50,187 bases of DNA from a virus (IMGVR_UViG_3300018422_000112:1-50187), one strand, 5' to 3'. Counted from the stretch's first letter, positions 1,483-48,266 are shown. The notes: generated from the letters alone by a model not told the origin. Translations and numbers: made by a program.

Positions 1483-1574
1483 GGCGGAGTAGCGCGGGCC
1501 TCCCTTGCCGCCTCGGTCTGGAGCCTTGGGTTGCGGGCGTCTCCGGTGCCCTGTCGGGGAACGTCCCCTGCCGC
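1483..1574 (+). repeat. Degenerate copy of the structured element family (E15)
   Basis: GGCGG...CTGGAGCC-n10-GGCGTCTCCGG..CCCTGTCGGGG...CCGC keeps the motif order and a GCGG/CCGC closing stem. Confidence 0.5.
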
Positions 1575-1767
1575 GGCCGAGCGCTCAGGCGCTCGCGCCG
1601 CCGCCGGGCCGGATGGTGTCGATCAAGGTCATCAAAGCAGAAATGGCCGAGGCCATCTAGGTGTCCGTCTTCATGGTTGCGGTCTCCTTTTTCATCGACT
1701 ATGCCGAAGCTCGGCAAACAGCGAAGGCCCATCGCTATCACGGTTTTTGAGGGGCTGCAAGCGATTT

Positions 1768-1941
1768 TCACGCCGCCCTCCCATAGCTCTCCGGCCCCAG
1801 CGGAATAGCCGTTCCACAGAAGGCGCATTCGGCCGACAGCCGCCCGATCAGCCAACTGCTACGGCCACAGCCCGGACAAGAGCATCCAGGTTTGTGACGG
1901 ATGACGTAGCCTCTATGGTGGGGATCGTGGGGAAGGGTCAT
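1768..1941 (-). CDS. Small zinc-ribbon protein
   Basis: CPGC...CAFC motif; ATGA overlap with the queD-like stop. Confidence 0.6.
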   Translation of the reverse strand: MTLPHDPHHRGYVIRHKPGCSCPGCGRSSWLIGRLSAECAFCGTAIPLGPESYGRAA

Positions 1942-2243
1942 GGGTGGTCCTCCGATTTCCATCTGGCGTAGAAGCGCTCCAAGGGCCGCCTGACTTCGAC
2001 CTCAACGCAATTGGCGAGGCAGCCAACAGCGCGAGCAATATCCTCGCCCCAAGACATATCCTCTGGCAGAACTTTATGATCCCAGAGGCTGACGACGCTC
2101 TGGAGGGCCGCCTTGAAACAGCGCGCGTCGGCCCTGTTCACATTCCGAAACCAGGCGATAACCTCGTAGCTGTGCCCGTGCATCTCTCCCTCAGGAGACT
2201 TGTGCGAGGCGCTGAATACTGCCCCAACTCCGGTAAGGATCAT
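1938..2243 (-). CDS. queD: QueD-like 6-carboxy-tetrahydropterin synthase (T-fold), short variant
   Basis: FSASH...MHGHSY zinc-binding motif, WDH motif, E-x-IA motif. Confidence 0.8.
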   Translation of the reverse strand: MILTGVGAVFSASHKSPEGEMHGHSYEVIAWFRNVNRADARCFKAALQSVVSLWDHKVLPEDMSWGEDIARAVGCLANCVEVEVRRPLERFYARWKSEDHP

Positions 2244-2995
2244 GCCGACGCTCCAATCTGTCGGCATAGGCATTGCGACCGGACCAACGCTCTGGGGCTG
2301 GTAACTCGCCGAAGATGGAAAGCTGGCGTGGGGGCTGATCCTGCCAGTCGTAGCGGTGCCCGTTTTGCGCTAACGTGGTCGCGTCCGCTCCGATAACGGG
2401 ATATTTGTGAGCCTCTGCAGCCCCCCGCAGCAGATGTGTTGGATGCCAGCGGTTTCCATAGAATCGATCTATTTCGTCCATCTTCCGGCGAAAGGCATCG
2501 CATCCTACCGGCTCGCGCTTGGGATGGCCGATCCAGCCGAGACAAACACGGTCGAATCGTTCGCAGAGATGCCCTAGGCGCTCTATTCGGCCATTCATAT
2601 GATAGACAGGAGCGCCCTTGCTCCGGCCAAAAGGCCAGTCGTTCAGTAGGGCGTCGTTGAGTTGGGAAGGGGCGCTTGGGCTGTCCGGAGTCACGGCCCA
2701 ACGTCCCGGAAGGAATAGCCGCGGCTCTAGCCATGCATAATAGGCGCGCCACCATGCGTCTCGTCTTTCTTGGTCCCACTCTTGACCGGCCCGCATCGCC
2801 GACATCCAGAACGAATATCCGCCGTGGTCGAAACATTATGTCGGGGCATATGCCCTCGACTGCCTCCATATCGTCCGGGCGGTAGAAAGAGACGCAGGCA
2901 GCTCGCCCGAGCAACACGGCAAGCAGCGCAGCGCGCGGAGTCAGCGGAGTGCCGTGGTAAATCGTGGGCAGACTTAGGCCGTCCTCTCCCATCAT
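2191..2995 (-). CDS. TGT/DpdA-like deazaguanine transglycosylase-fold protein, split by a +1 frameshift at 2833-2828 (programmed shift or pseudogene)
   Basis: YHGTPLTP...CVSF in frame 0; DHGGYS, PVYHM, RVCLG, THLLRG, GADATT in the +1 frame, matching TGT-barrel motif order. Confidence 0.65.
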
Positions 2996-3687
2996 GACGG
3001 GCTCCCTTGGGGGATGAGGTCGAGGCGCTTGGCGAGGCCGTCGCGGTTGTTCCAGTACATTCCGGGCAGTGAGCCGCCTGGCCCAGTCACTTCGCCAAGG
3101 CCGCGCCTTTTGAGTGCTCGCGCCGCAGCATAAAGCTGACTGGTGGTCAGCTCGACGCCGCAACCTTCTTCGCCGGTGGCATCGTCAGGACAGCTTGCGA
3201 TCAGCATTCGGCGCATGGGGTTAGAAAGGCCCATAATTCCGGCCTCTTTCTTTTTCCTTCTGGCGCGCCGAGTAGATTCCAGCGCGCAGGCTCGGCACCG
3301 CTGCCTTCTCTTCCCATCCGGGAAGACGACCCGAAGAGTGTTTGCTTCATTGAAGGGGTGGCCGTTCTTACAATGGGTGGGCTCTCGATTGTTGAGCCGC
3401 CCCTTGGAGAGAGCGTCCTGGATGTTCTCCAGTTGCGTCCCCCACCACAGATGCGCGGGGTTCACGCAAGGCGGATTATCGCAGGAATGCAGAGCAAAAT
3501 GAGCCTCGGTGGGCCTGCTGCGCCCGTCCGTCTCCAGGGAGATGTGAGTGGCCCTGCGGAGGGTGCCTTTGTGGTGAAAGGCGCCGTAACCTTTCCCCTG
3601 TGTCTGGCCCCGCCAAGGCCAGCACTCGTCCGGCTCTTGCCTATCGATCTTGCTCCAGAAGAGAGCGGCGGTCTGCTCGTCAATCAT
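2992..3687 (-). CDS. HNH endonuclease with Zn-finger, fused to a C-terminal wHTH-like domain
   Basis: ECWPWRG, LHSCDNPPCVNPAHL...EN, THCKNGH...CRAC; GGAGG RBS before ATG 3687. Confidence 0.85.
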   Translation of the reverse strand: MIDEQTAALFWSKIDRQEPDECWPWRGQTQGKGYGAFHHKGTLRRATHISLETDGRSRPTEAHFALHSCDNPPCVNPAHLWWGTQLENIQDALSKGRLNNREPTHCKNGHPFNEANTLRVVFPDGKRRQRCRACALESTRRARRKKKEAGIMGLSNPMRRMLIASCPDDATGEEGCGVELTTSQLYAAARALKRRGLGEVTGPGGSLPGMYWNNRDGLAKRLDLIPQGSPS

Positions 3688-3735
3688 CCCGCACCTCCCC
3701 CGGCATGGATGGTGGCCGGGCGCTCTTGTCATCAC

Positions 3736-4929
3736 TCACGGCCATTTCCGGCACTCCTTGCATTGATCGCCGTCGTGCATGTTGCTGAATTCGGTTGCGG
3801 GTTTGGTCTCGCCACAGAGACAGCACAGCCTGGTGGGCGGCATGGATACTGGGTCAGCCAGACTCGCGAGGCTCGCCGCCTCTTGCAGCAGCGCCACATA
3901 GCGAGGCTCGATCCCGTCGTAACTGTCGGCGGAAATGCCATCGTGAGCTTGTACGAACAGCGCCAGCGCGCGGCGGTGCATGGATACTGGGTCAGGTGAG
4001 GGTGTAATATCAGCCAAGCCGCTCAGAACGATGCTATCGGACTGACCCTGAAGGTAGGCGCGCTGGATGGCGCGGAGGGCTATGTCTCTTCCTTCGGGCG
4101 CTGGGAGAAAATTCATCCTCCCGTCTCGCATGCACTGAGCGGTATTCGGCTGCCCAGCCGCCTCATATTCAGCCGCCAGCAACTCCCGCGCCCGCTGCTC
4201 GACATCTCCCGCCGGACTTATTTGCATATCGTGCAAACAAGTGGCTGCAGGCATGGTGGGCGATGGGGAAAGGGCGGCATCGATTTCCGCAAGAAGCGTG
4301 CGGCATGTCGGAGCGACAGTTTGGTTCTCGATCGCGGGCTCCATCTCGGCCAACGTGATAGGAATCTCGACGTAGCGCCGAGCTCTTTTGAGAAGCGCCC
4401 GCAGCCCCGCTTCCCCGGCACCTTCGGATGCGGGCCGGAAGTGAACGATCCCGGCTTCGCGACGGTGCTCGATAGCCTCCATCAGAGTAGCGAGCCGGAC
4501 GCCAGCGCGAATTTCCATCGCGGGCGGTAGCCTTACATCGCACGGGAGGACGGCACCTTCGGACGATCGAACCCGCAAGCTTTCGTTGCCGGTTGGGGTG
4601 GATTCGGATGGCTTGGGAAGGGCGGCGTCGTAGCGCGTGATAAAGGCTTCCGCAGCCTCGCAGGCGTCCAACAATTCATCGTCAAATCCGGCTCTCCCGC
4701 CGCTCGTATAACCCCTGTAAGTGAGCCGCCTCAGAAGCCTGACCGCCTCCCTCGCGTCCCCTCCGGATAGGGGAGGGCGGGTGTTCCAACGGCCGATAGG
4801 GTCGTCTTCGCCTGGCATTGTCGCCCAACAAGTGAGGCAGCTTATCGACTCGATGCGCCATTTGTAACCGGTGATTATGCTCGCCTTGCCACCGCAAAAC
4901 GGACAGGGTTTCAGCTTATCGTCGCTCAC
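3736..4929 (-). CDS. Lar-family restriction alleviation domain fused to a mosaic C-terminus
   Basis: LKPCPFCGG...CLTC...WNTR N-terminal signature; C-terminal CCLC...CKEC. Confidence 0.7.
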   Translation of the reverse strand: MSDDKLKPCPFCGGKASIITGYKWRIESISCLTCWATMPGEDDPIGRWNTRPPLSGGDAREAVRLLRRLTYRGYTSGGRAGFDDELLDACEAAEAFITRYDAALPKPSESTPTGNESLRVRSSEGAVLPCDVRLPPAMEIRAGVRLATLMEAIEHRREAGIVHFRPASEGAGEAGLRALLKRARRYVEIPITLAEMEPAIENQTVAPTCRTLLAEIDAALSPSPTMPAATCLHDMQISPAGDVEQRARELLAAEYEAAGQPNTAQCMRDGRMNFLPAPEGRDIALRAIQRAYLQGQSDSIVLSGLADITPSPDPVSMHRRALALFVQAHDGISADSYDGIEPRYVALLQEAASLASLADPVSMPPTRLCCLCGETKPATEFSNMHDGDQCKECRKWP

Positions 4930-5675
4930 TTGGAGGAGTCCTTGGGTGAGGAATAGGTAGTTTCGGCGATGTCCTTCGGACCCGCGCTCTCATGCTCCGC
5001 ACCGAGCCGCTCTGCGGCGTCTCGGCCCTGCGGGTTTCGATCGCTATCGCGCGAGGCGATCAGCGCTGCACGGGCTATCGTTACGGCCTTGGACTCTGGC
5101 GCGAAGCTGTGATGCTCGGTGTCGATTATCTCGCCATGGGCGCCCATCAGCGCCGCGACCTTGGCCCCCAGCTCAACCTCTCTCTCTCGAAGTGCGCGCA
5201 GGTCTGCGTAGAGGTCCGGCAGTTCGGCCGAGGCCATGATCTGATCCCATTTGAAGGCATCAAGGGATTCGACCACTTCCCGGAAGTCGTCCGCATCGTT
5301 CGTGCTGCCGAAATAGGAGCGGTCGCCTTCGTCCTCGATCTTGTCGCGCACGTTGATCAGCGCGTCTCGCACGCGGATGAGTAAGCGGCTCTGATAGGCG
5401 CTGTCCGCCCGCAGCTTCACAATCTCGCGCGCGGAAGTCTCGGCGAAGTAGTTGCTGAAGAAGTTCACCGCCATCCCGGCTTCGCGGTGCCAAGGCCGAT
5501 ACGCGCTAGGCGGCGCATCGTCGCGCAGGCCAACGGCAATTGCGAGGACTCGCGCCAGCGCTTGTGTCAGTCGTTCCATGCGCGAGGGATCGAAGCCCGT
5601 AGGGCCGAGACCTTCTTGGGGCTCGGCTTGCGAGAGCCCGGTCGGCTTGCCGACGCGCCCTGAATCAGTCGTCAT
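4926..5675 (-). CDS. Hypothetical cassette protein whose N- and C-termini are encoded by elements E2 and E1
   Basis: Termini nearly identical to those of 10343..10741; unrelated middle. Confidence 0.7.
   Translation of the reverse strand: MTTDSGRVGKPTGLSQAEPQEGLGPTGFDPSRMERLTQALARVLAIAVGLRDDAPPSAYRPWHREAGMAVNFFSNYFAETSAREIVKLRADSAYQSRLLIRVRDALINVRDKIEDEGDRSYFGSTNDADDFREVVESLDAFKWDQIMASAELPDLYADLRALREREVELGAKVAALMGAHGEIIDTEHHSFAPESKAVTIARAALIASRDSDRNPQGRDAAERLGAEHESAGPKDIAETTYSSPKDSSK
4965..5050 (+). repeat. Structured element E1
   Basis: 84/86 identical to E3; closing stem GCGAT/ATCGC. Confidence 0.95.
5580..5671 (-). repeat. Structured element E2
   Basis: 90/92 identical to E4; closing stem GCGCG/CGCGC. 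Confidence 0.95.
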
Positions 5676-5884
5676 CCCACTTCTCCATTTCTCCGCCGCG
5701 CCTCATCCATCAGCTCGGACCTTCGGCGTGTTTCAGCTTGGGCGAGGGCCGCGAGTGCGCGCTCACTTTCCGCGCGGCGGGCTTCATCTACCTCGCGCGG
5801 GGTTCTGCCAGGAATCAAGCCCAGCTTCTGAGCAGCATAGACGACTGCTTGCGCCAGTGGGGAAAGGGGCTCAGGAATTGGCAT
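5672..5884 (-). CDS. Hypothetical phage protein
   Basis: ATGA-coupled ORF in the early-left operon. Confidence 0.55.
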   Translation of the reverse strand: MPIPEPLSPLAQAVVYAAQKLGLIPGRTPREVDEARRAESERALAALAQAETRRRSELMDEARRRNGEVG

Positions 5885-5896
5885 GTTTCTATCCTC

Positions 5897-6232
5897 TCAT
5901 CTCAGGTTCATCTTCGCCCGCTCGGTTGCGTTGACCGTGCGCCACGCCTCGAACCTCAGGCGCTTGCCCTCGGCCTTTGCGTCGGTTCTCCGGTAGTCGT
6001 AGTTCGCCAGTTCCCACTCGGCGGCGGCGGCTTTGTACGTCTCGTCGGCGCGGGCGAAATGCTCGGCCTCGCCGATCCCCTTGCCGGCGCCGCGGTGCTT
6101 GACGACCATGGCCGCGAGGACCTGTTTGCGGCGTTCGTCCAGGGCCTCGACCTGGGCGCGCGCCTCTGCGGCGGCCTCCATCGCCTCCTCGAGCCGATCG
6201 AGCGCCATATCCAGATCTTGCTCGTTACGCAT
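5897..6232 (-). CDS. Coiled-coil protein in the recombination module (UvsY-like position and composition)
   Basis: All-helical, next to ERF/SSB/nuclease genes. Confidence 0.5.
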   Translation of the reverse strand: MRNEQDLDMALDRLEEAMEAAAEARAQVEALDERRKQVLAAMVVKHRGAGKGIGEAEHFARADETYKAAAAEWELANYDYRRTDAKAEGKRLRFEAWRTVNATERAKMNLR

Positions 6233-6605
6233 GATCGAGCTCCCACTTTCTGCCCATGGGCGTGTTGGTCAGCCATTCGAGCCAATAGGCGGTGACGACA
6301 TCGCGGCCGTCGAACTCGTACTTCCGCTGGAACTCCGGCCAGCCCAGTACGTCCGTTTGCTCTTCATGGGCGCCGTCGCACATCGGCATGGACGCGGAAT
6401 CGCTAGCCTTGGTCGACATGCCCTTGTCGCCCCACGGATCGAAGTGGCAGGCGCGGACCTTGCCCCGGCAGACGTGCTTTGGGTCCTGCTGAATGATGAA
6501 GCACGACCGCCCGCGCAGCCATTTCAGGAAAGGCTCACACCGTTTCCATTCATCGGCTCGATGCGAATTCTGCACCCGAGGTTCAAAGGCGGACCTGGCC
6601 AGCAT
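6225..6605 (-). CDS. DUF968-like Zn/HNH-type nuclease
   Basis: FLKWLRGRSC...C...ACH...GMSTKASD...MPMCDGAH pattern. Confidence 0.6.
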   Translation of the reverse strand: MLARSAFEPRVQNSHRADEWKRCEPFLKWLRGRSCFIIQQDPKHVCRGKVRACHFDPWGDKGMSTKASDSASMPMCDGAHEEQTDVLGWPEFQRKYEFDGRDVVTAYWLEWLTNTPMGRKWELDHA

Positions 6606-6859
6606 TAGAAGCCGGGAACGTAGTCGTCATCGCCAGCGGCGGGCTGCCGGCTTTGTTGCCGTCGTTCGCCGCCTTGGCTGCTGTTCTCGCGCGGCTCGCG
6701 AAGATGGATGATGTACTGCCCGTCCTTGCTGGCCGGCATGGCGTCGAGCTTAACCATAAAGCCCGCCCCCTCGCGGTTAGCGAAGGCCACGCCGATGCGC
6801 GTCCAGTAGCTCTTGCCGTCGCTCTCGCGGACGGTCAGCGCGTCAAGCCGATTGCTCAT
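6605..6859 (-). CDS. Small single-stranded DNA-binding protein
   Basis: YWTRIGVAF beta-rich domain with acidic DDDYVPGF tail; downstream of ERF. Confidence 0.65.
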   Translation of the reverse strand: MSNRLDALTVRESDGKSYWTRIGVAFANREGAGFMVKLDAMPASKDGQYIIHLREPRENSSQGGERRQQSRQPAAGDDDYVPGF

Positions 6860-7527
6860 GCGTTCTCCAATTCGGTTTTGCGGTTGAAATATTCCTTCTC
6901 GAGGAATTCGTAGGCGGTGGCGGATGCGCCTCGGATCAGCTCCAGGTCGATCTCAGCGTCATTCCAGGCGAGGCCGAGCGAAGCGATGTCGCCGGACTCC
7001 CTGATCTTCTTGCGGATGCTGCCCGCGAGCTTTTGCAGGTCAGTCTGCTGCTCGCCCTTGGACGCGATCTCGATCTTCTCCTTGTCGGGATCGTCCTTGT
7101 CGCCGGTCTTGATGAGGAAGAGCCCGCGAAAGAGCTGCTTCATCGCATAAGATTGCGAAGAGCCGGCGGCTTGCGCCCCATTGAACTGGACGCTGACGGA
7201 CTTGAATATCGGCCCGTAGGCGGCGCCGCTTTCGTGAACGAGGGTGAAGGCGAAGCGCGACGACCACACCACCATTGGCTTGCCGTCTTTCTTGGTTACC
7301 TCCTGAGTCTCGGCATCGCGCGCTTCATTCGGGATGATGAACAGTCCGGCGTCGGCGCACTGCCCGCGGACGTGCTCAATGAAATCGTCGATAGAGGCAT
7401 ATTCGTAATGGTCGAATGTGTTCTCCCGCTCCTTGGCGAGGGTGCCGAGCGCCTTCATCACCTGGACGACGGCTTTGCCGATCGCTGGCGGGAAGAGGGC
7501 GGGATCGACCTGAGTATCAGCAGCCAT
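6856..7527 (-). CDS. erf: ERF-family single-strand annealing protein
   Basis: YEYASIDD, LVHESG, AQAAGSSQSYAMKQLFRGLFLI...DDPD ERF motif. Confidence 0.88.
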   Translation of the reverse strand: MAADTQVDPALFPPAIGKAVVQVMKALGTLAKERENTFDHYEYASIDDFIEHVRGQCADAGLFIIPNEARDAETQEVTKKDGKPMVVWSSRFAFTLVHESGAAYGPIFKSVSVQFNGAQAAGSSQSYAMKQLFRGLFLIKTGDKDDPDKEKIEIASKGEQQTDLQKLAGSIRKKIRESGDIASLGLAWNDAEIDLELIRGASATAYEFLEKEYFNRKTELENA

Positions 7528-7766
7528 TGGAAATCATCCTTTGAGATGGGGTGAAGCACATTGAGGAGCCGAAAGGGGCTGACCGGAAACAGGCGCGCGC
7601 TGTCGGTTCGCGGCGCCCATTCGGCGAGCCAGCGCTGGTCCGAAAGCAGCTCCCACGTTTCCGGGTCGCGCTCCCCGTCCTCGAGCCAGACGCGGACGGG
7701 AACCCAAGGCCCGCGGGCGCGGAGACGGATCTGGAAATAGCCTTCATGCGGCTCATCGATCAGCAC
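7458..7766 (-). CDS. Hypothetical phage protein
   Basis: EGYFQIRLRARGPWVPVRVW; coupled to neighbours. Confidence 0.6.
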   Translation of the reverse strand: MLIDEPHEGYFQIRLRARGPWVPVRVWLEDGERDPETWELLSDQRWLAEWAPRTDSARLFPVSPFRLLNVLHPISKDDFQWLLILRSIPPSSRQRSAKPSSR

Positions 7767-7971
7767 CTTGCGCCTCTTGGAGTTTGGCGACCTTGGCCGC
7801 GAGCCGGTCGGACGCGTCCGCGAGCTCGGACAGCAAGCCAGGGTCGAACAGCCGAGCCGGCGCCACTTCGATGAAGGGGACGCGCTGCGCGATTTGCGTC
7901 ACGTCATCGATCAGCATTTCGCGCTTGCCGATGGCGAGAGCTATTTCGTGCGGAGAGATGACGGTGGCCAT
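7753..7971 (-). CDS. Hypothetical phage protein
   Basis: GGGGAGG RBS at the inner end of E10, then MATVISPHE. Confidence 0.55.
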   Translation of the reverse strand: MATVISPHEIALAIGKREMLIDDVTQIAQRVPFIEVAPARLFDPGLLSELADASDRLAAKVAKLQEAQGADR

Positions 7972-7983
7972 TATCGCCTCCCC

Positions 7984-8082
7984 GCGCCAGTCGGGCGAAG
8001 CGCGGAGCGACGAGACGCCCCTTGGCGGCTCGGCCCGCAGGGCGAGCACGCGGTGACGGGCGCGCAGCGGCCGGCAGGCGCC
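7984..8082 (-). repeat. Structured element E10
   Basis: GCCCTGCGGGCCGAGCC..GGCGTCTCGTCGCTCCGCGCTTCG; closing stem GCGCC/GGCGC. Confidence 0.85.
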
Positions 8083-8137
8083 AAGGAACTGTCGTCGATG
8101 CGCTCTATATCGTGTTCGAGCATGAGGGCCGAAAGGG

Positions 8138-8611
8138 TCATGGATTGTCTCCGGGCGATGCGGCTTCGCCGCCGCTCTGGCTTGCTTCGCACTCAGCCAA
8201 GCTGCGCTTGTCTTCGCCCTGCGGGAGCCTGCCGCTATCGCGAGGCGGTTTTGGGGCAATCTGGTCGCGAGTGCCGGGCGGAGCGTGATAGTGTCTCTGG
8301 AAAGCAGCAAACGTCGCCGCGTGTTCGGGCGATAACAGCGCCTGACATTCGAGCTTGCCGATTTCGGCCGCTCCGGCGCGATATGCCCCGCCGTCGTCGG
8401 CCATGGACCACCACCAGTCAGCGCGATCCAGCGCTGCCCAATAGGCATCCAGGTCGACCGGCTCGACCTCGAAGAAGCTGAATAGCTCGCGCGGCGATGC
8501 GCCATATAGTTCAGCTCTCGCGCTCGCCTCATCGGCCCAATGGCGGCGCTTGCCGTCCTCCCCCAAGACCGGGCGAAGGACCATTCTGTCCCATCTGGCG
8601 GCGGTGATCAT
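8138..8611 (-). CDS. Hypothetical protein with C-terminus encoded by E9
   Basis: ATGA-coupled ORF. Confidence 0.6.
   Translation of the reverse strand: MITAARWDRMVLRPVLGEDGKRRHWADEASARAELYGASPRELFSFFEVEPVDLDAYWAALDRADWWWSMADDGGAYRAGAAEIGKLECQALLSPEHAATFAAFQRHYHAPPGTRDQIAPKPPRDSGRLPQGEDKRSLAECEASQSGGEAASPGDNP
8154..8241 (+). repeat. Structured element E9
   Basis: GGCGAT-CGGCTTCGCCG..TGCTTCGCA..CCCTGCGGG..ATCGC. Confidence 0.85.
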
Positions 8612-8781
8612 GGTTCCCTCTGCCCAATCGCGGTCGCAGCGATGCCGCGAAGGCGCTTGATGTGCTGGACTGCCCAGTCATATTCGGTGCCGTGGAAGGT
8701 CGCTGGACAATCAGGCAGGTGAGCCTCAGCGATTTCTTGGCACGCGGCCACGGATGCCAGCATTTCGTTGACCGTGGCCAT
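8608..8781 (-). CDS. Small hypothetical protein (57 aa, not in the ORF track)
   Basis: MATVNEMLAS...; overlapping start/stop codons at both ends. Confidence 0.5.
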   Translation of the reverse strand: MATVNEMLASVAACQEIAEAHLPDCPATFHGTEYDWAVQHIKRLRGIAATAIGQREP

Positions 8782-9008
8782 CACGCGGCCTCAGGCTCGC
8801 TGGCGGCAACGGCTTCCAGCCTGACGGGCGGGTCCATGCGGCGGCGAATGCGCTTGAGCGCCCAGAGCTTGCTTTCATGCTCTCGAAGGTCGCGCTTGGC
8901 GTCTTCGGAGCGGCGGGAGTAAAAATCCACCGTGCTCTGAATGGTTGCGATATCTTCGTCGAGAGCCGCCTTGGCCTCGTCGAGGGTGGTGATCAGTTCG
9001 TCGCTCAT
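8781..9008 (-). CDS. Small coiled-coil hypothetical protein
   Basis: AGGAG RBS; coupled ORF. Confidence 0.55.
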   Translation of the reverse strand: MSDELITTLDEAKAALDEDIATIQSTVDFYSRRSEDAKRDLREHESKLWALKRIRRRMDPPVRLEAVAASEPEAA

Positions 9009-9018
9009 GGTTGCGCTC

Positions 9019-9198
9019 CTATGAAAAGAGGATCAGTGCAAAGATGAAGAGGAAGGCCAGAAGGCCGCGATAGTCGTGCAGGGCCTGCGCAATGTGACGA
9101 GCGGCTTTGCCTGAGACCGCTTGCGGGCTCAGCCCCGCAGGGGCGCCGGCACGGTTGCCGCGACAGCGGCAATGCGCCAAACTGTTGTTCCTGCTCAC
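9019..9198 (-). CDS. Small membrane peptide with N-terminus encoded by E11
   Basis: GTGA-coupled start; C-terminal LLAFLFIFALILFS. Confidence 0.45.
   Translation of the reverse strand: MSRNNSLAHCRCRGNRAGAPAGLSPQAVSGKAARHIAQALHDYRGLLAFLFIFALILFS
9087..9178 (-). repeat. Structured element E11
   Basis: CCCCTGCGGGG-CTGAGCCCGCAAGCGGTCTCAG; closing stem GCGCA/TGCGC. Confidence 0.8.
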
Positions 9199-9596
9199 TT
9201 ATCCACCCCTTCCGCATCTGACTGGTTAGGGGAGAGAGCGGCGGCAAACTCGCCAACGGCCTGAGCAGATTGGAGCGCCATCTCTTCCTGCTCGGCCCAG
9301 TAGGCATCTTCGTCGGCGCGCTGCTGAGCCTCTTGCTCCGCCTGCCGCATCCAGTATTCTTCTTCCTGCCGAGCCTCTTCACGGCGGCGTTCAGCGGCAC
9401 GTTCCATCGCCCGCTCTTCTTCAAGCCGTTCGGCCTCGCGGCGATATTCGCGCTGATAGGCGTCGTTGGCCTCGTCGCAGTCGTAGGGGTTGCGATAGTC
9501 GTAGCGACCGCCGCCGTAGCGAAGATCGAACTCGGCATCATCCCGCGCTCGGCCTCGCGCCTCCCAATCCGTTGGGCAATTCCAAAGATGGCTCAT
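9195..9596 (-). CDS. Hypothetical Glu/Arg-rich protein
   Basis: Coupled ORF in the early-left operon. Confidence 0.55.
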   Translation of the reverse strand: MSHLWNCPTDWEARGRARDDAEFDLRYGGGRYDYRNPYDCDEANDAYQREYRREAERLEEERAMERAAERRREEARQEEEYWMRQAEQEAQQRADEDAYWAEQEEMALQSAQAVGEFAAALSPNQSDAEGVDK

Positions 9597-9862
9597 TCCC
9601 CATCTCCTTCAGAGAGAGCGGCCTGGATCGCGGCGATGAAGCCAGCTTCGAACATCATCATGTCGCTGGCACGGGCAGCAGCGGCCGCGTCTTGCGCCTC
9701 GTCACCAGCTCGGATCATCGCCTCATTCGGCGCCGGGAGGGCGGTCAGGACTATCCGAACGGCGGCATCGGCATCGCGCTCCGGGTAGCCGTCCTGTTCG
9801 AACAAGTAGCCGATCGTCGACGCGAGCAGCGCTCGACCTGCTTTCTCGATCATCTCAGCCAC
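9593..9862 (-). CDS. Hypothetical phage protein
   Basis: AGGAGG RBS; P-x-EAMI-x-AG motif common in phage early ORFs. Confidence 0.6.
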   Translation of the reverse strand: MAEMIEKAGRALLASTIGYLFEQDGYPERDADAAVRIVLTALPAPNEAMIRAGDEAQDAAAAARASDMMMFEAGFIAAIQAALSEGDGE

Positions 9863-9906
9863 TGGCCGCCCTCCTGTCTTTTCTCACCCCTGTTTGGGAT
9901 TGGATA

Positions 9907-10104
9907 TCAGTCACGTTCGCCTCGCTTGATTGCCTGCATCTCGGCCCATATTTTCGGCGGCCACATGCCCTTGTTCATGGGCGGGCGGGCGCGGGTTTCG
10001 ATGCGCTTCGGCCGGTCGGTGATCGCCGACTGCGCAAAGCTCGCCACTGTCGGCTTCTCGCCATCCGCGACACGATCCAGCCAATCGTTGAAGCCGTCGG
10101 TCAT
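9907..10104 (-). CDS. Hypothetical phage protein
   Basis: ATGA-coupled ORF. Confidence 0.5.
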   Translation of the reverse strand: MTDGFNDWLDRVADGEKPTVASFAQSAITDRPKRIETRARPPMNKGMWPPKIWAEMQAIKRGERD

Positions 10105-10346
10105 GCCGCAATATCCTTGGTGACGGGCTGGAGATGGCGGAGTGCGACTTGCTCAATGCTCTGCCCGCGCATGAGCGCGAACGAGGCGTAGGCGGCGGCG
10201 ATGTTCCGAACCCAAGCGCCCTCGTCGGAAAGGTTGTCGCCCTGCTGTTTGAGGAATGCGACCTCGAGACGGGCGAACGGCATCGCTTCCTGGATGAGGG
10301 CTTCGTAGCGTGCTCGGATGTCTAGGGTGGGATCGGGGGGGGTCAC
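10101..10346 (-). CDS. Hypothetical phage protein
   Basis: GTGA-coupled ORF. Confidence 0.5.
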   Translation of the reverse strand: MTPPDPTLDIRARYEALIQEAMPFARLEVAFLKQQGDNLSDEGAWVRNIAAAYASFALMRGQSIEQVALRHLQPVTKDIAA

Positions 10347-10741
10347 TTGGACTGTCCCGATGGAGGTTGGGCGATGTCCTTCGGACCCGCGCTCTCATGC
10401 TCCGCACCGAGCCGCTCTTCGGCGTCTCGGCCCTCCGGGTTTCGATCGCTATCGCAGGGGAACTCCGGCTCCCTCATTACAAGGCGGCCCTGTAGGGCAG
10501 CGATCTCACGCGCCACGCTGGTGATGCAAAGGGCGCAGAACTCGTGCCATTCTTCGCCGATGAAGATGCAGCCGCAGCGCCCGCACTCCACACCCCCCGG
10601 CTCTCGCGCGGGCCTGTCGCCGTCTGAACATCGAACACCAACGCGCGAGGGATCGAAGCCCGCAGGGCCGAGACCTTCTTGGGTCTCGGCTTGCGAGAGC
10701 CCGGTCGGCTTGCCGACGCGCCCTGAATCAGTCGCCCTCAT
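10343..10741 (-). CDS. Cassette protein with Zn-ribbon cargo (CGRC...CALC) and termini encoded by E4 and E3
   Basis: Shares termini with 4926..5675. Confidence 0.7.
   Translation of the reverse strand: MRATDSGRVGKPTGLSQAETQEGLGPAGFDPSRVGVRCSDGDRPAREPGGVECGRCGCIFIGEEWHEFCALCITSVAREIAALQGRLVMREPEFPCDSDRNPEGRDAEERLGAEHESAGPKDIAQPPSGQSK
10370..10455 (+). repeat. Structured element E3
   Basis: 84/86 identical to E1. Confidence 0.95.
10643..10734 (-). repeat. Structured element E4
   Basis: 90/92 identical to E2. Confidence 0.95.
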
Positions 10742-11004
10742 CTCCCCTGCTCCCTCGCAAGGGCGGCCAGGATCGCGGGCAGGGCGTTCCGCATGACGAC
10801 GATCAGCCTGCGGTTGGCCTCGCGTTCCTTTCGGGACAGTTTGCGATAGCGTTCGTTCTGTTTCGGGTCGTCAGTGTCGGCGATTTTACAGTCGGCCGCC
10901 CAGACATCGTTGCCGCCGTCTATTTTCCACGGGCCTTTCGTCGCCTCGGCATTGAGAGACTCCAGCTTGGCGAGTACATCGGCTATGGATAGAGGGGTGG
11001 TCAT
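10738..11004 (-). CDS. Ead/Ea22-like early protein
   Basis: ATKGPW...ANRRLIVVMRNALPAIL pattern. Confidence 0.6.
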   Translation of the reverse strand: MTTPLSIADVLAKLESLNAEATKGPWKIDGGNDVWAADCKIADTDDPKQNERYRKLSRKEREANRRLIVVMRNALPAILAALAREQGR

Positions 11005-11309
11005 GGGTGGCCTTTCTGCATTTTGCGGATCACGCGGGCGAAGCTGGCCTGTTGCGGGTTGACGACCTGCCCGTTCATGCCCATCCAGGTTAAGCGGCCG
11101 GCCGCCCACAAATCGCCGGGCAAGTCGATGATGCCGTGCTCCAGCACGGTTTCGATCTGCTCCGGATGTGCGGCGAGATACGAGATGATCATGCCGGCCG
11201 TCTCGGCGCCGCCAACGCCGGCCTGCCAGCCAATGGCCTCGGCGATATCGGCAAGCCGTGATACGAAGTCAGCGCGAATGTCGGCCGCACTAAGGCTATC
11301 GGAGGACAT
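11001..11309 (-). CDS. Hypothetical phage protein
   Basis: Coupled ORF. Confidence 0.6.
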   Translation of the reverse strand: MSSDSLSAADIRADFVSRLADIAEAIGWQAGVGGAETAGMIISYLAAHPEQIETVLEHGIIDLPGDLWAAGRLTWMGMNGQVVNPQQASFARVIRKMQKGHP

Positions 11310-11761: not shown

Positions 11762-12347
11762 GACTATTCTCCGGGGAAGGGCTGGGCGTCGCGCTGCCTT
11801 CGGCATCGCCGCTCTGGCGGTCCTGCGGACCCGAGCCCGTGCCGGTCTCGGCGCTGCGCGCGCCTGCCGCTGACGCGAGGGCAGCGTCCATATTGCCGAG
11901 CAGCTCGTCGCGGATGCCGTACTGGCCCACAATTTCGCCGGTGTAGAAATCAGGGACGTCCACGCCGCCGAGATCAAACTCACCGAGCGAGGCTATCGCA
12001 GCGCGGGCTTGGGTCAGGGCATCATAAAGACCACCGACAACCGGCCCGACAGCCTCCAGCCAATCGGCTGTAGCATCACAGGTCACGGCGATCTTGCCAG
12101 CGAACAACTCGCGATCCTGGCGATCACGGACAGCATTGGCAGCGCAGCGAAGGTTGTCGGCTTTGCGCGGAAGCTGTGCCAGCGCGCCATGCGGTACCGA
12201 CCCGGAGGGCCGAGACGCTTCTTCAGCGGCTCGGTGCGGAGCATCGGTGACGCGGTCCTGCGAAGCAGGAGGCGCCAAACCCTTCTTCGCGAGAGCCTCG
12301 ACAAGAATATCACCCAGTGTCTCGTCCGGTTGCTGAGAGCGGGACAT
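11754..12347 (-). CDS. Cassette protein with termini encoded by E6 and E5
   Basis: Coupled ORF reading through both elements. Confidence 0.6.
   Translation of the reverse strand: MSRSQQPDETLGDILVEALAKKGLAPPASQDRVTDAPHRAAEEASRPSGSVPHGALAQLPRKADNLRCAANAVRDRQDRELFAGKIAVTCDATADWLEAVGPVVGGLYDALTQARAAIASLGEFDLGGVDVPDFYTGEIVGQYGIRDELLGNMDAALASAAGARSAETGTGSGPQDRQSGDAEGSATPSPSPENSHD
11785..11876 (+). repeat. Structured element E5
   Basis: TGCCTTCGGCA, GTCCTGCGGAC, CCGAGCC..GGTCTCGG, CGCTGCGCG; closing stem GCGTC/GACGC. Confidence 0.88.
12184..12276 (-). repeat. Structured element E6
   Basis: ATGCTCCGCACCGAGCCGCT..GCGTCTCGGCCCTCCGGGT shared with E3; closing stem GCGCC/GGCGC. Confidence 0.9.
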
Positions 12348-12348
12348 G

Positions 12349-15755: not shown

Positions 15756-15947
15756 ATGCTCGCCGCCGTCCTCCGAGCCCTCAGTCGCTTCCGTTCGAAG
15801 CCTCTCGACTATGACCCTCATAAGATAGCCTATGGGGACTACCCTGTTTTGCCGCGCGGCTTCGCCGAACCGGCTCTCGCCCTGCGGGCCGAGCCCGAAG
15901 GCGGTCTCGTCGCTACGCGCTTCGATCCGGCGCGGGGAGAGGAGTAG
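15756..15947 (+). CDS. Small ORF whose C-terminal half is element E7
   Basis: GGGGAGG RBS; stop abuts the MTase ATG. Confidence 0.45.
   Translation: MLAAVLRALSRFRSKPLDYDPHKIAYGDYPVLPRGFAEPALALRAEPEGGLVATRFDPARGEE
15852..15935 (+). repeat. Structured element E7
   Basis: CCGGCTC/GATCCGG stem, CCCTGCGGG, CCGAGCC..GGTCTCG, CGCTACGCG. Confidence 0.88.
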
Positions 15948-16764: not shown

Positions 16765-16850
16765 GGCGCATCGGCTCCGCCGACCAGGCTCTCGTCTCCG
16801 ACCACGCCCGTCTGCGCGGTCGCGGCCCTGCGGGCTTCGATCCTTTGCGC
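16765..16850 (+). repeat. Structured element E8 (inside mini-ORF 16722..16895)
   Basis: GGCCCTGCGGGCTTCGATCC shared with E4; closing stem GCGCA/TGCGC. Confidence 0.88.
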
Positions 16851-18450: not shown

Positions 18451-18538
18451 GCGAGAGGATCGTCGCCCGTGAGGGGCGAGACGCGCAGCGGCTCGATGAG
18501 CGAAGCGAGCAGAGCCGTGCCGCCGCAGGCGGTCTCGC
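18451..18538 (-). repeat. Structured element E12 (inside mini-ORF 18438..18578)
   Basis: CCGCCTGCGGCGG, CGCTTCGC, CGAGCC..CGTCTCG; closing stem GCGAGA/TCTCGC. Confidence 0.82.
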
Positions 18539-42500: not shown

Positions 42501-43028
42501 CGGAGGATCGAGAGCGCGAAGGACGCTGGGACCGTCCTTCACCGCGCATTTTGGGTAATGATCATGCCGCCGATCGTCGATGGGCTCATTCGCGAGTGGA
42601 TGGGCGGGTCCGGGCCTGGCGACGATGACGAGGACGGCGAGATATCGCTGGAGGAGCGTGGCGAATGGCTGGCAAGCCGCGTTATGTTTGGCAACATCGC
42701 CTCGATCCCCGGCATCCGGGAGGTTGGCGGCGCTGTCGATTCAGGCTTCGGCTACCGCATTTCCCCCGTGTCCATGGTCGGTGAAAGCCTTCTCCAGGGA
42801 TTTCAGAATGTCGAGCGGATGCTGGATCGCGACGAAGGGACTGAGCCGAGCGACCGCTGGGTCAAGCAGACGCTCACGCTCTACGGCCTCCTGTTCGGCA
42901 AGCCCACGGGCCAGCTCTCAGCGGCGGCTCAGTTCAGTTACGACACCGCCACCGGGGAAGCCGAGCCGGAGACCGTCGGCGACTATTACACTGGTCTGAC
43001 GAGGGGGCGGCTGGAGGAAGTCGAATAA
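36558..43028 (+). CDS. Large internal virion (ejection) protein, 2156 aa
   Basis: Size and position; STLIHESGH...HEMWARGFERY module. Confidence 0.85.
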   Translation: MPSPADEGRARRVSGLRREAAARVALHAVDDTSPATARADARLGRQAGIPLQSFDDATRPMAEARARSFQVQDALSRAPRLAPILADPRRYQRVSDDLAPLTDIVDAVHRQSRDMAATFMSEASGRREPRRIGGGGISPVGQAISALLSGTAAVGEALVGGGIEMGGSALQASGRLAVQTGVTALGTIGGAHVLAGSPSIRDLTDAAARPLSRASQEAARPIVRYGNTFATPTDSPLVNRLQTAARSAGGSAILLLASAATRNPLTGTVIAGVAESERAYEDAIASGLNEQEARSYADINGLIEGGMEYWSNRLFVGDIVGGSGFLRTLRNQVASEVPSELATTAGQELNRFASIERRQGVTVGEFVRDLPGELLDTFITTILATGMTTSISHPIATVVNRRVEQIQARTDARTVDRIMGASAQSRTRTESPHDFREIMDEAADGTPVENLYIPPENIRQLFQTPEDLAEDNFWSAYAEDIAEAEAIGGDVVIPLSEAATHLAGNPQWEALKDHARTSAGGMSRIEAEEANEAFADAIRQTGEELTAELEADRAAMEPVVKVYEAMRDKLMLAGFRADAASQLATQFSQRQAVRAQRLGRPLTGQEAGEVEVRQILPERLAQAITAAEVPDAGLRDVIAEMRRKRGVRSEQARFGPSLLDWIAKRGGIEDRGGDIAAMGAGPLRGSAKKGQRKLIRPSNDGQPSLLGADGQQNSNSPDELALRAWEAGYFTEFAERPSVNDLLNAISEGLSGRDRFVPADENQADMLRDAAQELSSLLDQRGLDADTASDAEIARTVSQYQSERMEGRSFGQGLFDDPEQPRRSMTTEQRAELDARQLQSMARRGGQASVKDQAGGLFSAERDQDSLFQTYGDGPRGRITFTSDGRSVIDLFEARDLSTLIHESGHLYLEELKTDAAIALQLDTVEGRQLFADFETVKAWFAREGHPIGEDGVIPTEAHEMWARGFERYAMEGKAPSSTLRRAFEAFRSWLLNIYKTADRLRAPITPEIRDVMARLLATDEEIAAAQEEQQIKALFKTAKEAGMTAAEFAAYNRSTEDARDEAHSALLQRTMATIRASRTKEYRTQEASVNAEIAAAVDNQPVFKTLRLLRTGKVTDEEARPVKLDRQFLIDSYGPDALDAMPKSVPPIFGSENTTHPDVIAGEVGFESGDEMIRMLMGHEQTRQELRAKGDKRSPRQVLIDEETAARMAERYGDPLRDGSIEEEARALIHNDRQGEVIAAEIRALGRKTGQRPTPYSIARQWAAERIATGVVVGVASGTALQQYQRAARRAAKLAEEAMLKGDANETFRQKQSQMLNNALISEGRKAKDRIDIAVRRLGKLAKRRTMKSVDQDYLDQVHGLLEQVDLGQRSQTAIDKRISFETWAAAQEAAGHDLTVPASFANTLGQTHWSRLSVEELIGLDDTVQQIIHLGRLKQTLLDGKERRDREEVIAEMEAVGGGLKQRPPSTLNDPDRNFLDKTRSKLRGADAAMVKIEQLCLWLDGNRQNGPFTRMIFRPMAEAQGREADMMRLYVEKMNVVLSGMPKEQLRDWGREVDTPELIVNVEGHPERGRPWRLYKDQIVMLAMNWGNEGNRQRIVDGYRWSEAQVEIVLARLMSAEDWAFVQATWDTIDELWPQVAEMERRVNGFAPDKVEAIPVETPFGTFRGGYFPAVYDPTWSSRAEANAEKNLLEANYVKANTRASSTQERIEGVKRPILLSMGVITRHLGEVIHDITHREALIEVNRIVSDERIQRVISNTMGPEYGKLLTPWLKHIANDAARNANSNSIVVNFFRGLNRNVTLVGLGYRLTSAIAQVAGMPNIIAKIGAVRMGEGWLRFMSNPLSAYREVTDKSAEMRDRFSTMDRDIVERAQQMAGRRGIRAIQGPGWFTKYAFHFILIMDAFLTTAGWIGAYRKAAAEGMSEEEAVAFADQTIRLSQGAGGAKDQAAITREHEAVKVFTRFFSYFSALYSQQRDVFHRLRRIESAKDAGTVLHRAFWVMIMPPIVDGLIREWMGGSGPGDDDEDGEISLEERGEWLASRVMFGNIASIPGIREVGGAVDSGFGYRISPVSMVGESLLQGFQNVERMLDRDEGTEPSDRWVKQTLTLYGLLFGKPTGQLSAAAQFSYDTATGEAEPETVGDYYTGLTRGRLEEVE

Positions 43029-43030
43029 CG

Positions 43031-43079
43031 CTGTGCATCCCTCCGCCTGAGGGCGGCGGAGATGACTATCCTGCCGGCG
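43031..43079 (+). promoter_or_regulatory. Putative late promoter 3
   Basis: CTGTGCATCCC-25 nt-TATCCT-7 nt-ATG. Confidence 0.7.
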
Positions 43080-47282: not shown

Positions 47283-47477
47283 TTAGGCGGGGGGATCGTC
47301 CAGCGGTTTCCAGTGCGTCGGGCGCATCGGCCATCCTCCAGGTTCGGATCGCCACTCGCCAAGTCGCTCGTTCCAAGCTCCGGTGATCACCGGGTAGCGG
47401 GCCTTCGGATAATTGGTGCCGAGCAGCTTCCGCTTCTTGTCCTTCAGCGCCGTCGAGATTGGCTGCCAGTCGCTCAC
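47283..47477 (-). CDS. DUF551-like protein
   Basis: WQPISTA...PTHWKPL. Confidence 0.7.
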   Translation of the reverse strand: MSDWQPISTALKDKKRKLLGTNYPKARYPVITGAWNERLGEWRSEPGGWPMRPTHWKPLDDPPA

Positions 47478-47752
47478 TTTCCGTCTCCAGGTTCAGCCGT
47501 CGCCATGCCGGGAGGATCGGGAAGCGGCATCCAATGCGTGGGAGGAGCCCGCCCTGGCTGATTGCATATGAGCCACCGGCCCTTTCCCTCTTGGTTCCAG
47601 CTCCCGCCTTCATCGCGATCCGGGAGCCATCGAGCGAACGCAACGTCTCTTAGACCGCGCCACCCTGCTATAATCTCATGGCGCCAGACCCAGATGTTCG
47701 CGTCAGGCGGGTACTTCTTCTTCGGCGCAGTTTCAATTGGCAACCAGTCCAT
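47474..47752 (-). CDS. DUF551-like protein
   Basis: WLPIETAPK...PTHWMPLPDPP. Confidence 0.75.
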   Translation of the reverse strand: MDWLPIETAPKKKYPPDANIWVWRHEIIAGWRGLRDVAFARWLPDRDEGGSWNQEGKGRWLICNQPGRAPPTHWMPLPDPPGMATAEPGDGK

Positions 47753-47794
47753 TCCTCATCCTCTCTTCACCCTGGGTAAGCCGTGCAGATTATG

Positions 47795-47883
47795 GGCGCA
47801 TCCGCTGCGCGGACCGCGTGCTATGGCTTCGCCACGGAGCCAGCTTCGCCGTCTCCGCCCATTCGGGTAACGCCCGCTTGCGC
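47795..47883 (+). repeat. Structured element E13
   Basis: TCCGCTGCGCGGA, TGGCTTCGCCA, CGGAGCC..GTCTCCG; closing stem GCGCA/TGCGC. Confidence 0.85.
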
Positions 47884-48174
47884 GTCGGCGCGGCCAAAGC
47901 TCTTCGCCTCCATGTAGGTGTGGACCAGCTCGCTCATGATCATGTCGTCGTCGTACTCGGGCGGCGCGTAGATATTCCAAACTCTCTCCGGCGTCCGAAA
48001 GGGATGGAGATTATAGCGAAAGCGCTGTATCTGAATCGTCTCTTCCACGACAGGCTCTTTGGAGATGCTGGTGAGCGGTGGCGTGACCGCGAGAAGATGA
48101 TATTCGTGAGCGGGCAAGTTCGAACATCGCCCCGCCCATGGCCCATCTATGAAGTAGCAGTTTTCCATCGTCAT
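47821..48174 (-). CDS. Cargo gene between E14 and E13
   Basis: AGGAG RBS at the inner edge of E14; FIDGPWAG motif. Confidence 0.6.
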   Translation of the reverse strand: MTMENCYFIDGPWAGRCSNLPAHEYHLLAVTPPLTSISKEPVVEETIQIQRFRYNLHPFRTPERVWNIYAPPEYDDDMIMSELVHTYMEAKSFGRADAQAGVTRMGGDGEAGSVAKP

Positions 48175-48182
48175 TCTCCTAT

Positions 48183-48266
48183 GCGAAATGCGATACCCAC
48201 CCGTGAGGGCGGAGACAACGAAGATTGGCTCCGTTCATGGGTAGCGCGGTGCCGAAGGCATTCGCC
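48183..48266 (-). repeat. Structured element E14
   Basis: TGCCTTCGGCA, GCGCTACCCA/TGGGTATCGC, CGGAGCC..GTCTCCG; closing stem GCGAA/TTCGC. Confidence 0.85.

Follow-up and report, generated by a model that had tools for sequence, protein, structure and literature searches.

A branched, covarying DNA element at the cassette junctions of a temperate phage, shared with microviruses and conjugative elements, is a candidate single-strand initiation signal

We analysed a complete provirus of 50,187 bp and 63% G+C (source record IMGVR_UViG_3300018422_000112; "the window" below means the whole of this stretch) and, within it, a dispersed multi-hairpin element of which this temperate tailed phage carries 14 copies. 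The element is about 85 bases long in the prophage and 65-110 nt across its family, which we found in three kinds of carrier: Microviridae, integrative and conjugative elements (ICEs) with plasmids, and tailed phages and prophages. It has a conserved, covarying fold, lies on a fixed strand in the small phages and conjugative elements, and marks junctions in phage genomes where small gene cassettes have been exchanged. With moderate confidence, we read it as a single-strand initiation signal, of the kind represented by single-strand initiation sites (ssi), single-strand origins (sso) and minus origins, and as a new family of strand-specific signals in single-stranded DNA (ssDNA).

The prophage opens with an integrase gene (1-1200, a weak PF00589 match at the prophage end) and continues through a leftward early operon with Lar-like, DUF968 and ERF genes, a repressor gene (13522-13983) and a rightward early operon that includes a DNA methyltransferase and a DnaA-C-like initiator. 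From the small terminase gene at 20951 onwards it is a structural block, to about 46 kb. All 14 copies of the element are confined to the early and accessory regions. We refer to the 3' end of the element, in the form in which it was first drawn (the '+' form), as O3. A covariance model, R1, was seeded with ten copies from other viral contigs together with the window copy 5580-, and the window was searched with it with filters off. This search recovered 12 of the 14 copies at E<0.01 and matched the other two (8155+ and 9087-) weakly, and all of the copies listed in the initial annotation of the window are indeed present in the sequence. The same annotation had proposed a degenerate copy at 1483+, which did not hold up, since the only match there is 1561-1592 at E 4.3, and had seen no copy between 21 and 46 kb, where R1 likewise found nothing credible (best match 25682-25730, E 0.33). 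The exact core, CCGAGCC..GTCTCGG, occurs five times in the window against 0.07 expected, and 0 of 100 shuffled sequences reached five. Relative to the local genes, eight copies are sense and six antisense, so that both orientations occur, as had been noted.

Five inverted pairs account for most of the copies (4966/5658, 8155/9177, 10371/10721, 11786/12275 and 47796/48265), and we refer to each pair with the DNA that it encloses as a cassette; of the remaining four, two flank the methyltransferase gene as a direct pair and two are solo. In cassette 1, the left copy (4966..5050, +; R1 65.1 bits, E 5.5e-12) is antisense to the leftward early operon, with its O3 facing the cargo. That cargo is a single ORF (open reading frame) on the minus strand (5051..5579) with no Pfam or PHROG family and no relative among the viral contigs, and an ATG at 5579 is abutted by the right copy (5580..5658, -; 87.2 bits, a seed member), which is sense. 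A solo sense copy follows at 7984..8063 (-; E 0.0062), 12 nt upstream of a start codon at 7971. The copies of cassette 2 are the two weak ones, 8155..8241 (+; 17.2 bits, E 0.19), in which the layout is visible, and 9087..9177 (-; 14.3 bits, E 0.82), with cargo at 8242-9086. Cassette 3 consists of a left copy at 10371..10455 (+; 65.8 bits, E 3.9e-12), a small Cys-rich ORF (10456..10642, -) unrelated to the cargo of cassette 1, and a right copy at 10643..10721 (-; 83.7 bits), the only window copy in which the C.T mismatch of the bulged stem is exchanged for an A-T pair.

In cassette 4, the left copy (11786..11876, +) has the full layout and is matched in part by R1 (11828-11864, E 0.0025), the cargo is 11877-12183 and the right copy (12184..12275, -) is matched over 12191-12253 (E 0.0028). 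Cassette 5 lies beyond the structural block, with copies at 47796..47883 (+; E 0.00036) and 48183..48265 (-; E 7.3e-8) around cargo at 47884-48182, the right copy being sense and lying 8 nt before a start codon that has a ribosome-binding site. The direct pair is made up of two sense copies, one at 15852..15935 (+; E 5.6e-7), 12 nt upstream of the methyltransferase gene, and the other at 16766..16850 (+; E 7.6e-9), between that gene and the next. The second solo copy, at 18451..18538 (-; E 0.003), is antisense and sits between two rightward genes.

We tallied 65 adjacent pairs from the window and 78 viral loci, some of which overlap or are duplicates, so that the counts are partly dependent. 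The orientations were 40 +-, 15 -+, 5 ++ and 5 --, and the gap was 845 nt or less in 37 of the 40 +- pairs. In a +- pair both O3 ends face the enclosed DNA, which means that an enclosed gene, on whichever strand it lies, has a sense copy upstream of it and an antisense copy downstream. The enclosed ORFs are mutually unrelated; among 36 that were tested, 30 had no PHROG family and the others were a HicB-like protein, an HNH endonuclease and four of unknown function. The suggestion that the copies bracket accessory genes is therefore borne out, in the form of cassette-like +- pairs around small genes.

The junctions of these cassettes coincide with one end of the element. Cassettes 1 and 3 have left ends that are 96% identical (4966-5050 versus 10364-10455) and right ends that are 98% identical (5580- versus 10643-10734, counting 13 nt of outer flank). 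The two cargoes are unrelated to each other, and the homology stops exactly at the inner O3 ends. Between two other viral loci (L048 and L015) homology breaks within 3 nt of O3, and in three 93%-identical microviruses (L037, L053 and L085) a variable stretch is bordered within 3 nt of it. Relatives of the phage identified through ERF are 71-73% identical in protein, too distant for breakpoints at the level of single bases; their conserved block starts at window position 7983 (homology to L221), adjoining the O3 of copy 7984-, and the number of copies per relative is 0, 5, 0, 2 and 1. A megablast search of 3700-12700 against isolated phages gave no match. Homology thus breaks at a fixed end of the element, as a check put forward with the initial annotation had envisaged, and we conclude that the elements mark cassette junctions at which cargo was exchanged.

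Several smaller features attach to the window copies. Minus-strand ORFs at 4926-5675, 10343-10741 and 11754-12383 span a sense copy, the cargo and an antisense copy, and two of them begin at an ATGA that overlaps the upstream stop (5675 and 10741), inside the conserved outer flank. Translation of the element as a conserved feature was considered and rejected: all three frames are open in 76-83 of 105 sense copies, as expected from composition. The outer flanks of copies 5580- and 10643- (5659-5676 and 10722-10739) contain a near-palindrome, CTGAWTCAG, that includes a GANTC site. The gene flanked by the direct pair is the phage's own DNA methyltransferase gene (15948-16718, +; N6_N4_Mtase family). 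Contigs of the assembly end inside the near-identical copies (4984-4994, 5642-5651, 10389-10399 and 10685-10734); such copies fragment short-read assemblies and could cause cassettes to be mis-joined.

The element folds into a three-way junction, in which an outer stem of 5 bp (GCG-NN/NN-CGC) surrounds a variable hairpin and an inner stem. The inner stem, which contains a C.T mismatch, encloses an optional second hairpin, a bulged stem (CCGAG-C-C...G-T-CTCGG) and a short hairpin. This last hairpin is CCC-TNC-GGG, and a bulged T precedes the 3' arm of the outer stem. The layout, including the bulged stem and the T-N-C loops, is as it had been described from the window alone. The terminal GCG-NN and NN-CGC are present in 120-123 of 125 copies, and the mismatches are close to invariant, with C in 122/125 and T in 121/125 copies for the inner stem and C in 122/124 and T in 124/124 for the bulged stem. 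These unpaired and mismatched bases do not change across alpha-, beta- and gammaproteobacterial hosts. The small loops are mostly C-TNC-G in the '+' form and hence C-GNA-G on the other strand, where the C.T mismatches likewise become G.A. GNA triloops closed by a C-G pair are unusually stable in DNA.

We measured covariation in two sets of copies, using alignments (A4 and A5) that were fitted to the model. In the first, of 125 distinct copies from the window and 78 viral loci, 97.9% of 2700 cells (22 pairs) were paired against 75.4% after shuffling, a value that 0 of 500 shuffles reached; changes occurred on both sides in 22 of 22 pairs, 523 cells were compensatory, and slid controls gave 26-52% paired. 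The second, of 68 distinct chromosomal copies, gave 95.7% against 81.0% (again 0 of 500 shuffles), with changes on both sides in 14 of 22 pairs. About 80 copies had been retrieved with an exact pattern in which the last hairpin and the 3' arm of the bulged stem are fixed, and the unbiased tests are those of the outer stem, the first hairpin, the inner stem and the distal bulged stem only. Most of the covariation is carried by the outer stem, the first hairpin and the inner stem. The outer and inner stems vary as had been proposed, the covariation is overwhelming, and because of these figures we conclude, from the comparison of sequences, that the structure is under selection. A tRNA-like pairing of the last hairpin with the outer stem was rejected, as the covariation of the inner stem fits the pairing originally drawn. 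We also rejected the idea that the 5' sense copy of a cassette pairs with its 3' antisense copy, since the two are only 84% complementary over 32 nt, which is no better than for unrelated copies.

Outside the window, the exact core pattern was found in 92 IMG/VR stretches and in at least 121 in species-representative genomes. The main hosts are Alphaproteobacteria (Bradyrhizobium, Novosphingobium, Sphingopyxis, Aureimonas, Azospirillum, Hyphomonadaceae and Paracoccus), and further hosts are Pseudomonas, one Gallionellaceae genome and one Acidobacteriaceae genome. When one window copy was compared with isolated phages by blastn, only two records matched, KT264808 and MH572438, both of them microviruses. 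The model finds a single full-length copy in each (E 1.3e-12 and 6.7e-9, respectively), intergenic and on the strand opposite to all genes. The same blastn search against plasmids gave two records only, a low number that reflects the method. Among small IMG/VR records, 18 carry the element; a Phage_F capsid gene is present in eight of these, and in 8/9 of those that are at least 90% complete. In total the element was found in at least ten Microviridae genomes, and the '+' form lies opposite the capsid or coding strand in 10/10, with intergenic copies; nine of these assignments are firm and the tenth (L068) rests on a weak capsid match. The element is single-copy in these genomes of 4-6 kb. Microviruses package the coding strand, and the ssDNA of the virion therefore carries the reverse-complement form of the element.

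On chromosomes and plasmids the element follows a corresponding rule. We annotated 41 chromosomal loci, of which 24 hold genes for a relaxase (MobA/VirD2 with DUF3363), TraF, T4CP, ArdC, SSB, ParB, DUF736, YAcAr, DUF3768 or ParA, and in all 24 the element is co-directional with these ICE or plasmid genes. In Bradyrhizobium it follows the transglycosylase gene and lies about 258 nt upstream of the relaxase gene (rlxS), an interval in which ICEs of the ICEMlSymR7A type are described as having their origin of transfer, oriT (PMC11963761). One Bradyrhizobium ICE has further copies 22 and 47 kb into the presumed leading side, one of which lies 323 nt upstream of ardC, and in a Xanthobacter plasmid a copy precedes parA-repA by 290 nt. 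Where two chromosomal copies are adjacent, they share one orientation (7 of 7 pairs). Five genomes of 6.3-9.0 Mb, in each of which 150 candidates were scored, contained 4, 5, 1, 1 and 9 matches, clustered, so the element is not a high-copy genomic repeat. Leading-region genes, as set out in PMC11541004, use the transferred strand as template. Given this rule and the shared direction of element and leading-region genes, the transferred strand would carry the same reverse-complement form as the packaged strand of microviruses.

Two side observations concern these loci. A second motif of 15 nt, GCGCGCTCCGCTTGC, occurs 0-40 nt beyond O3, co-oriented with the element, in 20 of 227 loci (among them L108, L110, L116, L125, L131, L135, L136, L142, L145, L150 and L171); its carriers are Pseudomonas and alphaproteobacterial chromosomal copies and one viral contig, and a search of the window allowing up to two mismatches gave no match. 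This motif may belong with the element to a larger unit, or may itself be a start or nick site. Some chromosomal copies (L104, L119, L124 and L136, from Pseudomonas, Azospirillum and Hyphomicrobium) adjoin defence-type or accessory genes, namely those for Shedu SduA_C, a type I restriction HSDR_N fragment, a Cap4 nuclease and patatin, and the element may also mark variable cargo regions of islands.

Wobble pairs are scarce in the first set of copies: G.T and T.G together make up 9 of 2700 cells and A.C and C.A 13 of 2700, and the first hairpin has a single wobble among its 423 pairs. Their near-absence means that the pairing is Watson-Crick on both strands and, together with the invariant C.T mismatches, makes the element look like DNA rather than RNA. 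Since, in addition, it runs opposite to the transcript in the ssDNA phages yet co-directionally with the genes in ICEs, we agree with the initial annotation that it acts at the DNA level, most likely as folded ssDNA. That its loops read C-GNA-G on the other strand, an aside in that annotation, proves to be the central point, for the other strand is the packaged one and, by the argument above, the transferred one.

A strict strand rule and a single intergenic copy in genomes of 4-6 kb make up the profile of a single-strand initiation site; a single copy in microviruses and co-oriented copies in ICE leading regions fit a strand-specific ssDNA signal, like ssi, sso or Frpo, better than a recombination site. 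Under the reading that we favour, the working form would be ssDNA and the active strand the complement of the first-drawn form, with its C-GNA-G loops and two G.A mismatches. Elements that enter the cell or replicate as one defined strand would carry the signal such that this strand folds, namely the packaged strand in microviruses and the transferred strand in ICEs and plasmids, and a host factor (primase, primosome or RNA polymerase) would treat the folded strand as a signal for single-strand initiation. With the active strand as template, synthesis would then proceed towards the O3 side; in ICEs it would enter the downstream genes, and in phage pairs it would reach the cargo from either side. 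The presence of the same element in carriers with unrelated enzymes points to a host factor.

This reading places the element beside the ssi, sso and minus origins (the G4 origin, the phiX174 primosome assembly site, the M13 minus origin and sso1 of ICEBs1), which are likewise folded, orientation-specific, non-coding ssDNA with several hairpins. Sites of this kind are common to ssDNA phages and to conjugative or rolling-circle elements of one host range and are presumably read by host enzymes, as proposed here. The phiX174 site is described as intergenic (PMC9865509), like the microvirus copies, and an sso has been documented in an ICE, as sso1 of ICEBs1 (PMC4595007). One trait that defines such sites is a non-coding sequence folded on the strand that is single-stranded in the life cycle; in keeping with it, the element is intergenic and opposite the coding strand in 10/10 microviruses, and the same polarity is expected in ICEs. 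We set the element beside those sites, which Rfam does not include, by description; it differs from them in being a G+C-rich three-way junction with two invariant mismatches, in occurring in alpha-, beta- and gammaproteobacterial elements and in being multi-copy in ICE leading regions. We know of no ssi that brackets genes as inverted pairs in a double-stranded DNA phage.

A number of points weigh against this reading. The initiation function, the host factor and the way in which cargo is exchanged are read from context, and the transferred strand of the ICEs from gene order and published rules. A double-stranded DNA phage has no obvious need for an ssDNA initiation signal, the initiation model leaves the inward-facing phage pairs unexplained, and none of the seven chromosomal, ICE-type pairs is inverted, so the cassette form is not common to ICEs. 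Thermodynamics alone is unremarkable, with DNA-fold z-scores of -0.1 to -2.7, and the presumed active strand was the more stable in only 3 of 4 copies tested. No -35 or -10 boxes are recognisable by eye in the conserved G+C-rich columns of the element. Breakpoints show a modest excess, with 8 of 86 internal homology endpoints in or at elements that make up 3.9% of bases; these endpoints are non-independent, reciprocal matches being counted twice. Lastly, four of the eight sense copies in the window end 0-12 nt before a start codon, and the phage copies may have an effect on mRNA.

For the phage pairs, three explanations can be offered. The pairs may serve as portable homology for cassette exchange, their inversion avoiding the deletion to which direct repeats would be prone; they may reflect template switching at initiation; or they may act on the mRNA. 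Two inward-facing copies would turn any small gene into a strand-symmetric module, and if synthesis began at the fold and then changed template from one copy to another, the cargo would be swapped exactly at O3. The most inclusive version of this idea, in which one structure-defined ssDNA signal and a conserved host replication factor are common to microviruses, ICEs and plasmids, and tailed phages, with recombinase-free cassettes in the phages whose cargo is swapped at O3 by template switching, is tentative, and we regard it as doubtful in its entirety.

A first alternative is the proposal of the initial annotation that the elements are recombination or mobilisation sites. Their folded ssDNA would be recognised by an HUH/Y1 enzyme, relaxase or tyrosine recombinase, which would move or exchange the genes between the copies. 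We consider this proposal unlikely. The part of it that stands is the bracketing of cargo and the breaks at a fixed end: inverted pairs surround unrelated genes, and two window cassettes have near-identical ends and different contents. Bradyrhizobium ICEs also have a copy in their oriT-relaxase interval, microviruses have an HUH Rep of their own, and the conserved mismatches and bulged base recall the features by which proteins recognise attC sites and IS200/IS605 ends. The evidence against it concerns enzymes, arrangement and products. None of 57 window ORFs scanned belongs to a Y1/HUH or integron-type integrase family, so that no dedicated enzyme is evident, as had been conceded at the outset, and the carriers' enzymes of this kind are unrelated or absent (Rep in microviruses, a MOBP relaxase, and neither in tailed phages). 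Copies in ICEs are multiple and co-oriented over tens of kb, unlike a single oriT. Target-site duplications were not found over 200 distinct copies and 25 offset combinations, the highest count being 9 for k=3, where 3.8 were expected, while k=6 gave 1. The contigs of one run showed no joined, excised or inverted forms, which is weak evidence, as contigs break at copies and so say nothing on excision or inversion.

The more specific comparison with integrons was not upheld. The attC sites also conserve structure over sequence, act as folded ssDNA with unpaired or mismatched bases and delimit small promoterless gene cassettes, and our element matches them in its conserved structure, ssDNA fold, mismatches and link to small cassettes. 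However, an attC site is a single imperfect hairpin with R and L boxes and R''/R' core sites RYYYAAC / GTTRRRY, repeated in a one-way array beside intI and attI. By its ends (the GCG-NN/NN-CGC and three-way junction described above, against the attC consensus as generally given) the element is not an attC site, nor is it one by its array, as the window copies alternate and phage loci show all four orientations in the proportions already stated. No integron integrase was found in the window, whose sole integrase is the weak PF00589 match at the prophage end.

That the fold is an ssDNA promoter or roadblock of the Frpo/ssp kind, recruiting RNA polymerase to the transferred strand or stalling second-strand synthesis so that early genes are expressed first, is in our view quite unlikely as an account of the whole family; in ICEs the element might act in this way, instead of or as well as in initiation. 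Such promoters and roadblocks are now being studied in F-like plasmids (PMC13478746). As portrayed there and in PMC11541004, Frpo-type elements occupy similar places, upstream of anti-restriction, ssb and partition genes on the transferred strand, and are G+C-rich and strongly folded. Copies in ICEs and plasmids correspondingly lie upstream of, and co-directional with, ardC, ssb, parB, parA and DUF736 genes (24/24 loci, at 258-323 nt from rlxS, ardC and parA, with the transferred strand deduced as above), and sense copies in the phage stand directly upstream of start codons. However, an Frpo-type element is a single long hairpin, about 300 nt in length, in which -35 and -10 boxes are imitated, whereas ours is 65-110 nt, branched and, by eye, shows no such boxes in its G+C-rich conserved parts. 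The 260-320 nt between the element and the ICE genes have no long Frpo-like hairpin either, as seen in one 421-nt stretch from element to ardC, which folds no better than its shuffles (z -1.26). The element is also present in microviruses, in which the packaged strand is the coding strand, so that a promoter there would yield no sense mRNA.

A selfish miniature repeat, similar to REP (repetitive extragenic palindromic) sequences or to a MITE (miniature inverted-repeat transposable element), without function for its carriers and covarying through the copying of palindromes rather than through selection, is improbable. It would agree with the abundance of intergenic copies in one phage, where either orientation occurs, with the variable copy number among the ERF relatives and with perfect Watson-Crick arms, which are typical of DNA palindromes. 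It would not lead us to expect the strict orientation in microviruses (10/10) and ICEs (24/24 loci and 7/7 pairs), a single copy in genomes of 4-6 kb with almost no spare DNA, or unpaired bases and mismatches that are invariant across three classes of Proteobacteria. The absence of target-site duplications over the 200 distinct copies speaks against it as well and led us to reject a MITE. REP and BIME sequences with their RAYT enzymes, and palindromic elements derived from IS200/IS605, are hairpins 20-40 nt long, number tens to hundreds per chromosome and depend on a Y1 transposase. They resemble our element as short structured DNA repeats that act as ssDNA, and inverted pairs of them can flank a gene (the REPtron), although the genes flanked by our element are mutually unrelated. 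Both REP/BIME-RAYT and IS200/IS605-derived elements were rejected on the enzyme, as none of the 57 window ORFs belongs to a Y1 family and the cargo ORFs of the 36 pairs gave HNH, HicB-like and unknown proteins, and on copy number, with 1-9 copies per genome in the five genomes (150 candidates scored in each) and these confined to mobile elements.

The last alternative, that the element works as structured RNA, be it a small RNA, a leader or an element for processing or stabilisation, is very improbable. In its favour, ribosome-binding sites and start codons directly adjoin sense copies, the C-UNCG-G loop is stable in RNA, and two hairpins trail the element in the sense direction in chromosomal loci L121 and L129 (with a terminator-like run of seven T in L121 only). 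Against it, natural RNA families usually contain several per cent wobble pairs compared with the 9/2700 and 1/423 found here, transcripts of microviruses and ICEs would bear opposite strands of the element, 6 of 14 window copies are antisense, and no Rfam family matches. The comparison with Rfam 15, which the initial annotation had advised, gave 0 matches in the window at the gathering score and, in ten loci at E up to 5, none on the element. In window 1-20000 at E up to 1 it gave only a Tymo_tRNA-like match off the elements (12859-12936, -, in the interval that separates the repressor gene from the early operon), which, at 23.7 bits where the gathering score is 40 and with E 0.32, is probably due to chance.

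Arrangements that recall the phage cassettes have been noted before. Arbiol et al. in 2010, for the PeSLs ('mobile regulatory cassettes') of T4-type phages, and Clark et al. in 2001, for the boundary sequences of lambdoid phages, reportedly found short repeats that flank novel ORFs and mark junctions of exchange. Like our element, these are repeated motifs beside small novel ORFs in plastic regions of phage genomes; PeSLs are direct repeats combining an early promoter with a stem-loop within one phage group, whereas our element is a covarying branched fold, is inverted around its cargo and occurs also in ssDNA phages and ICEs. We found no account of the element in the literature covered by our search, which included few subscription journals. 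Hairpins with compensatory changes have been remarked on in some small microviruses (PMC9865509), and Supplementary Fig. S12 of that paper may already show some copies. Folded ssDNA signals of mobile elements are a known kind; what is new is the distribution of this one across kinds of element and the geometry of the phage cassettes.

Folded ssDNA signals in the DNA that enters a cell first are an active topic, on which work so far has dealt with ssDNA promoters and roadblocks of enterobacterial plasmids. If the single-strand initiation reading is true, the present element would be a second, structurally different and far more widely shared family of such signals across ICEs and plasmids of Alpha-, Beta- and Gammaproteobacteria. 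It would also give many uncultured microviruses a candidate minus-strand origin, supply a marker tying them to host ranges, and define a concrete site at which temperate phages swap small accessory, possibly anti-defence, genes. The covariance model can be used at once to annotate these sites, and the invariant G.A mismatches and GNA loops are clear targets for mutation.

A separate repeat family was noticed in the structural block of the window. Its copies, CTGTGCATCCC..CGCC, lie at 23531-23564, 29879-29912 and 43015-43048, all on the plus strand, and two of the three shortly precede the starts of long ORFs (29943 and 43062), so this repeat may be a late regulatory or ribosome-binding motif.

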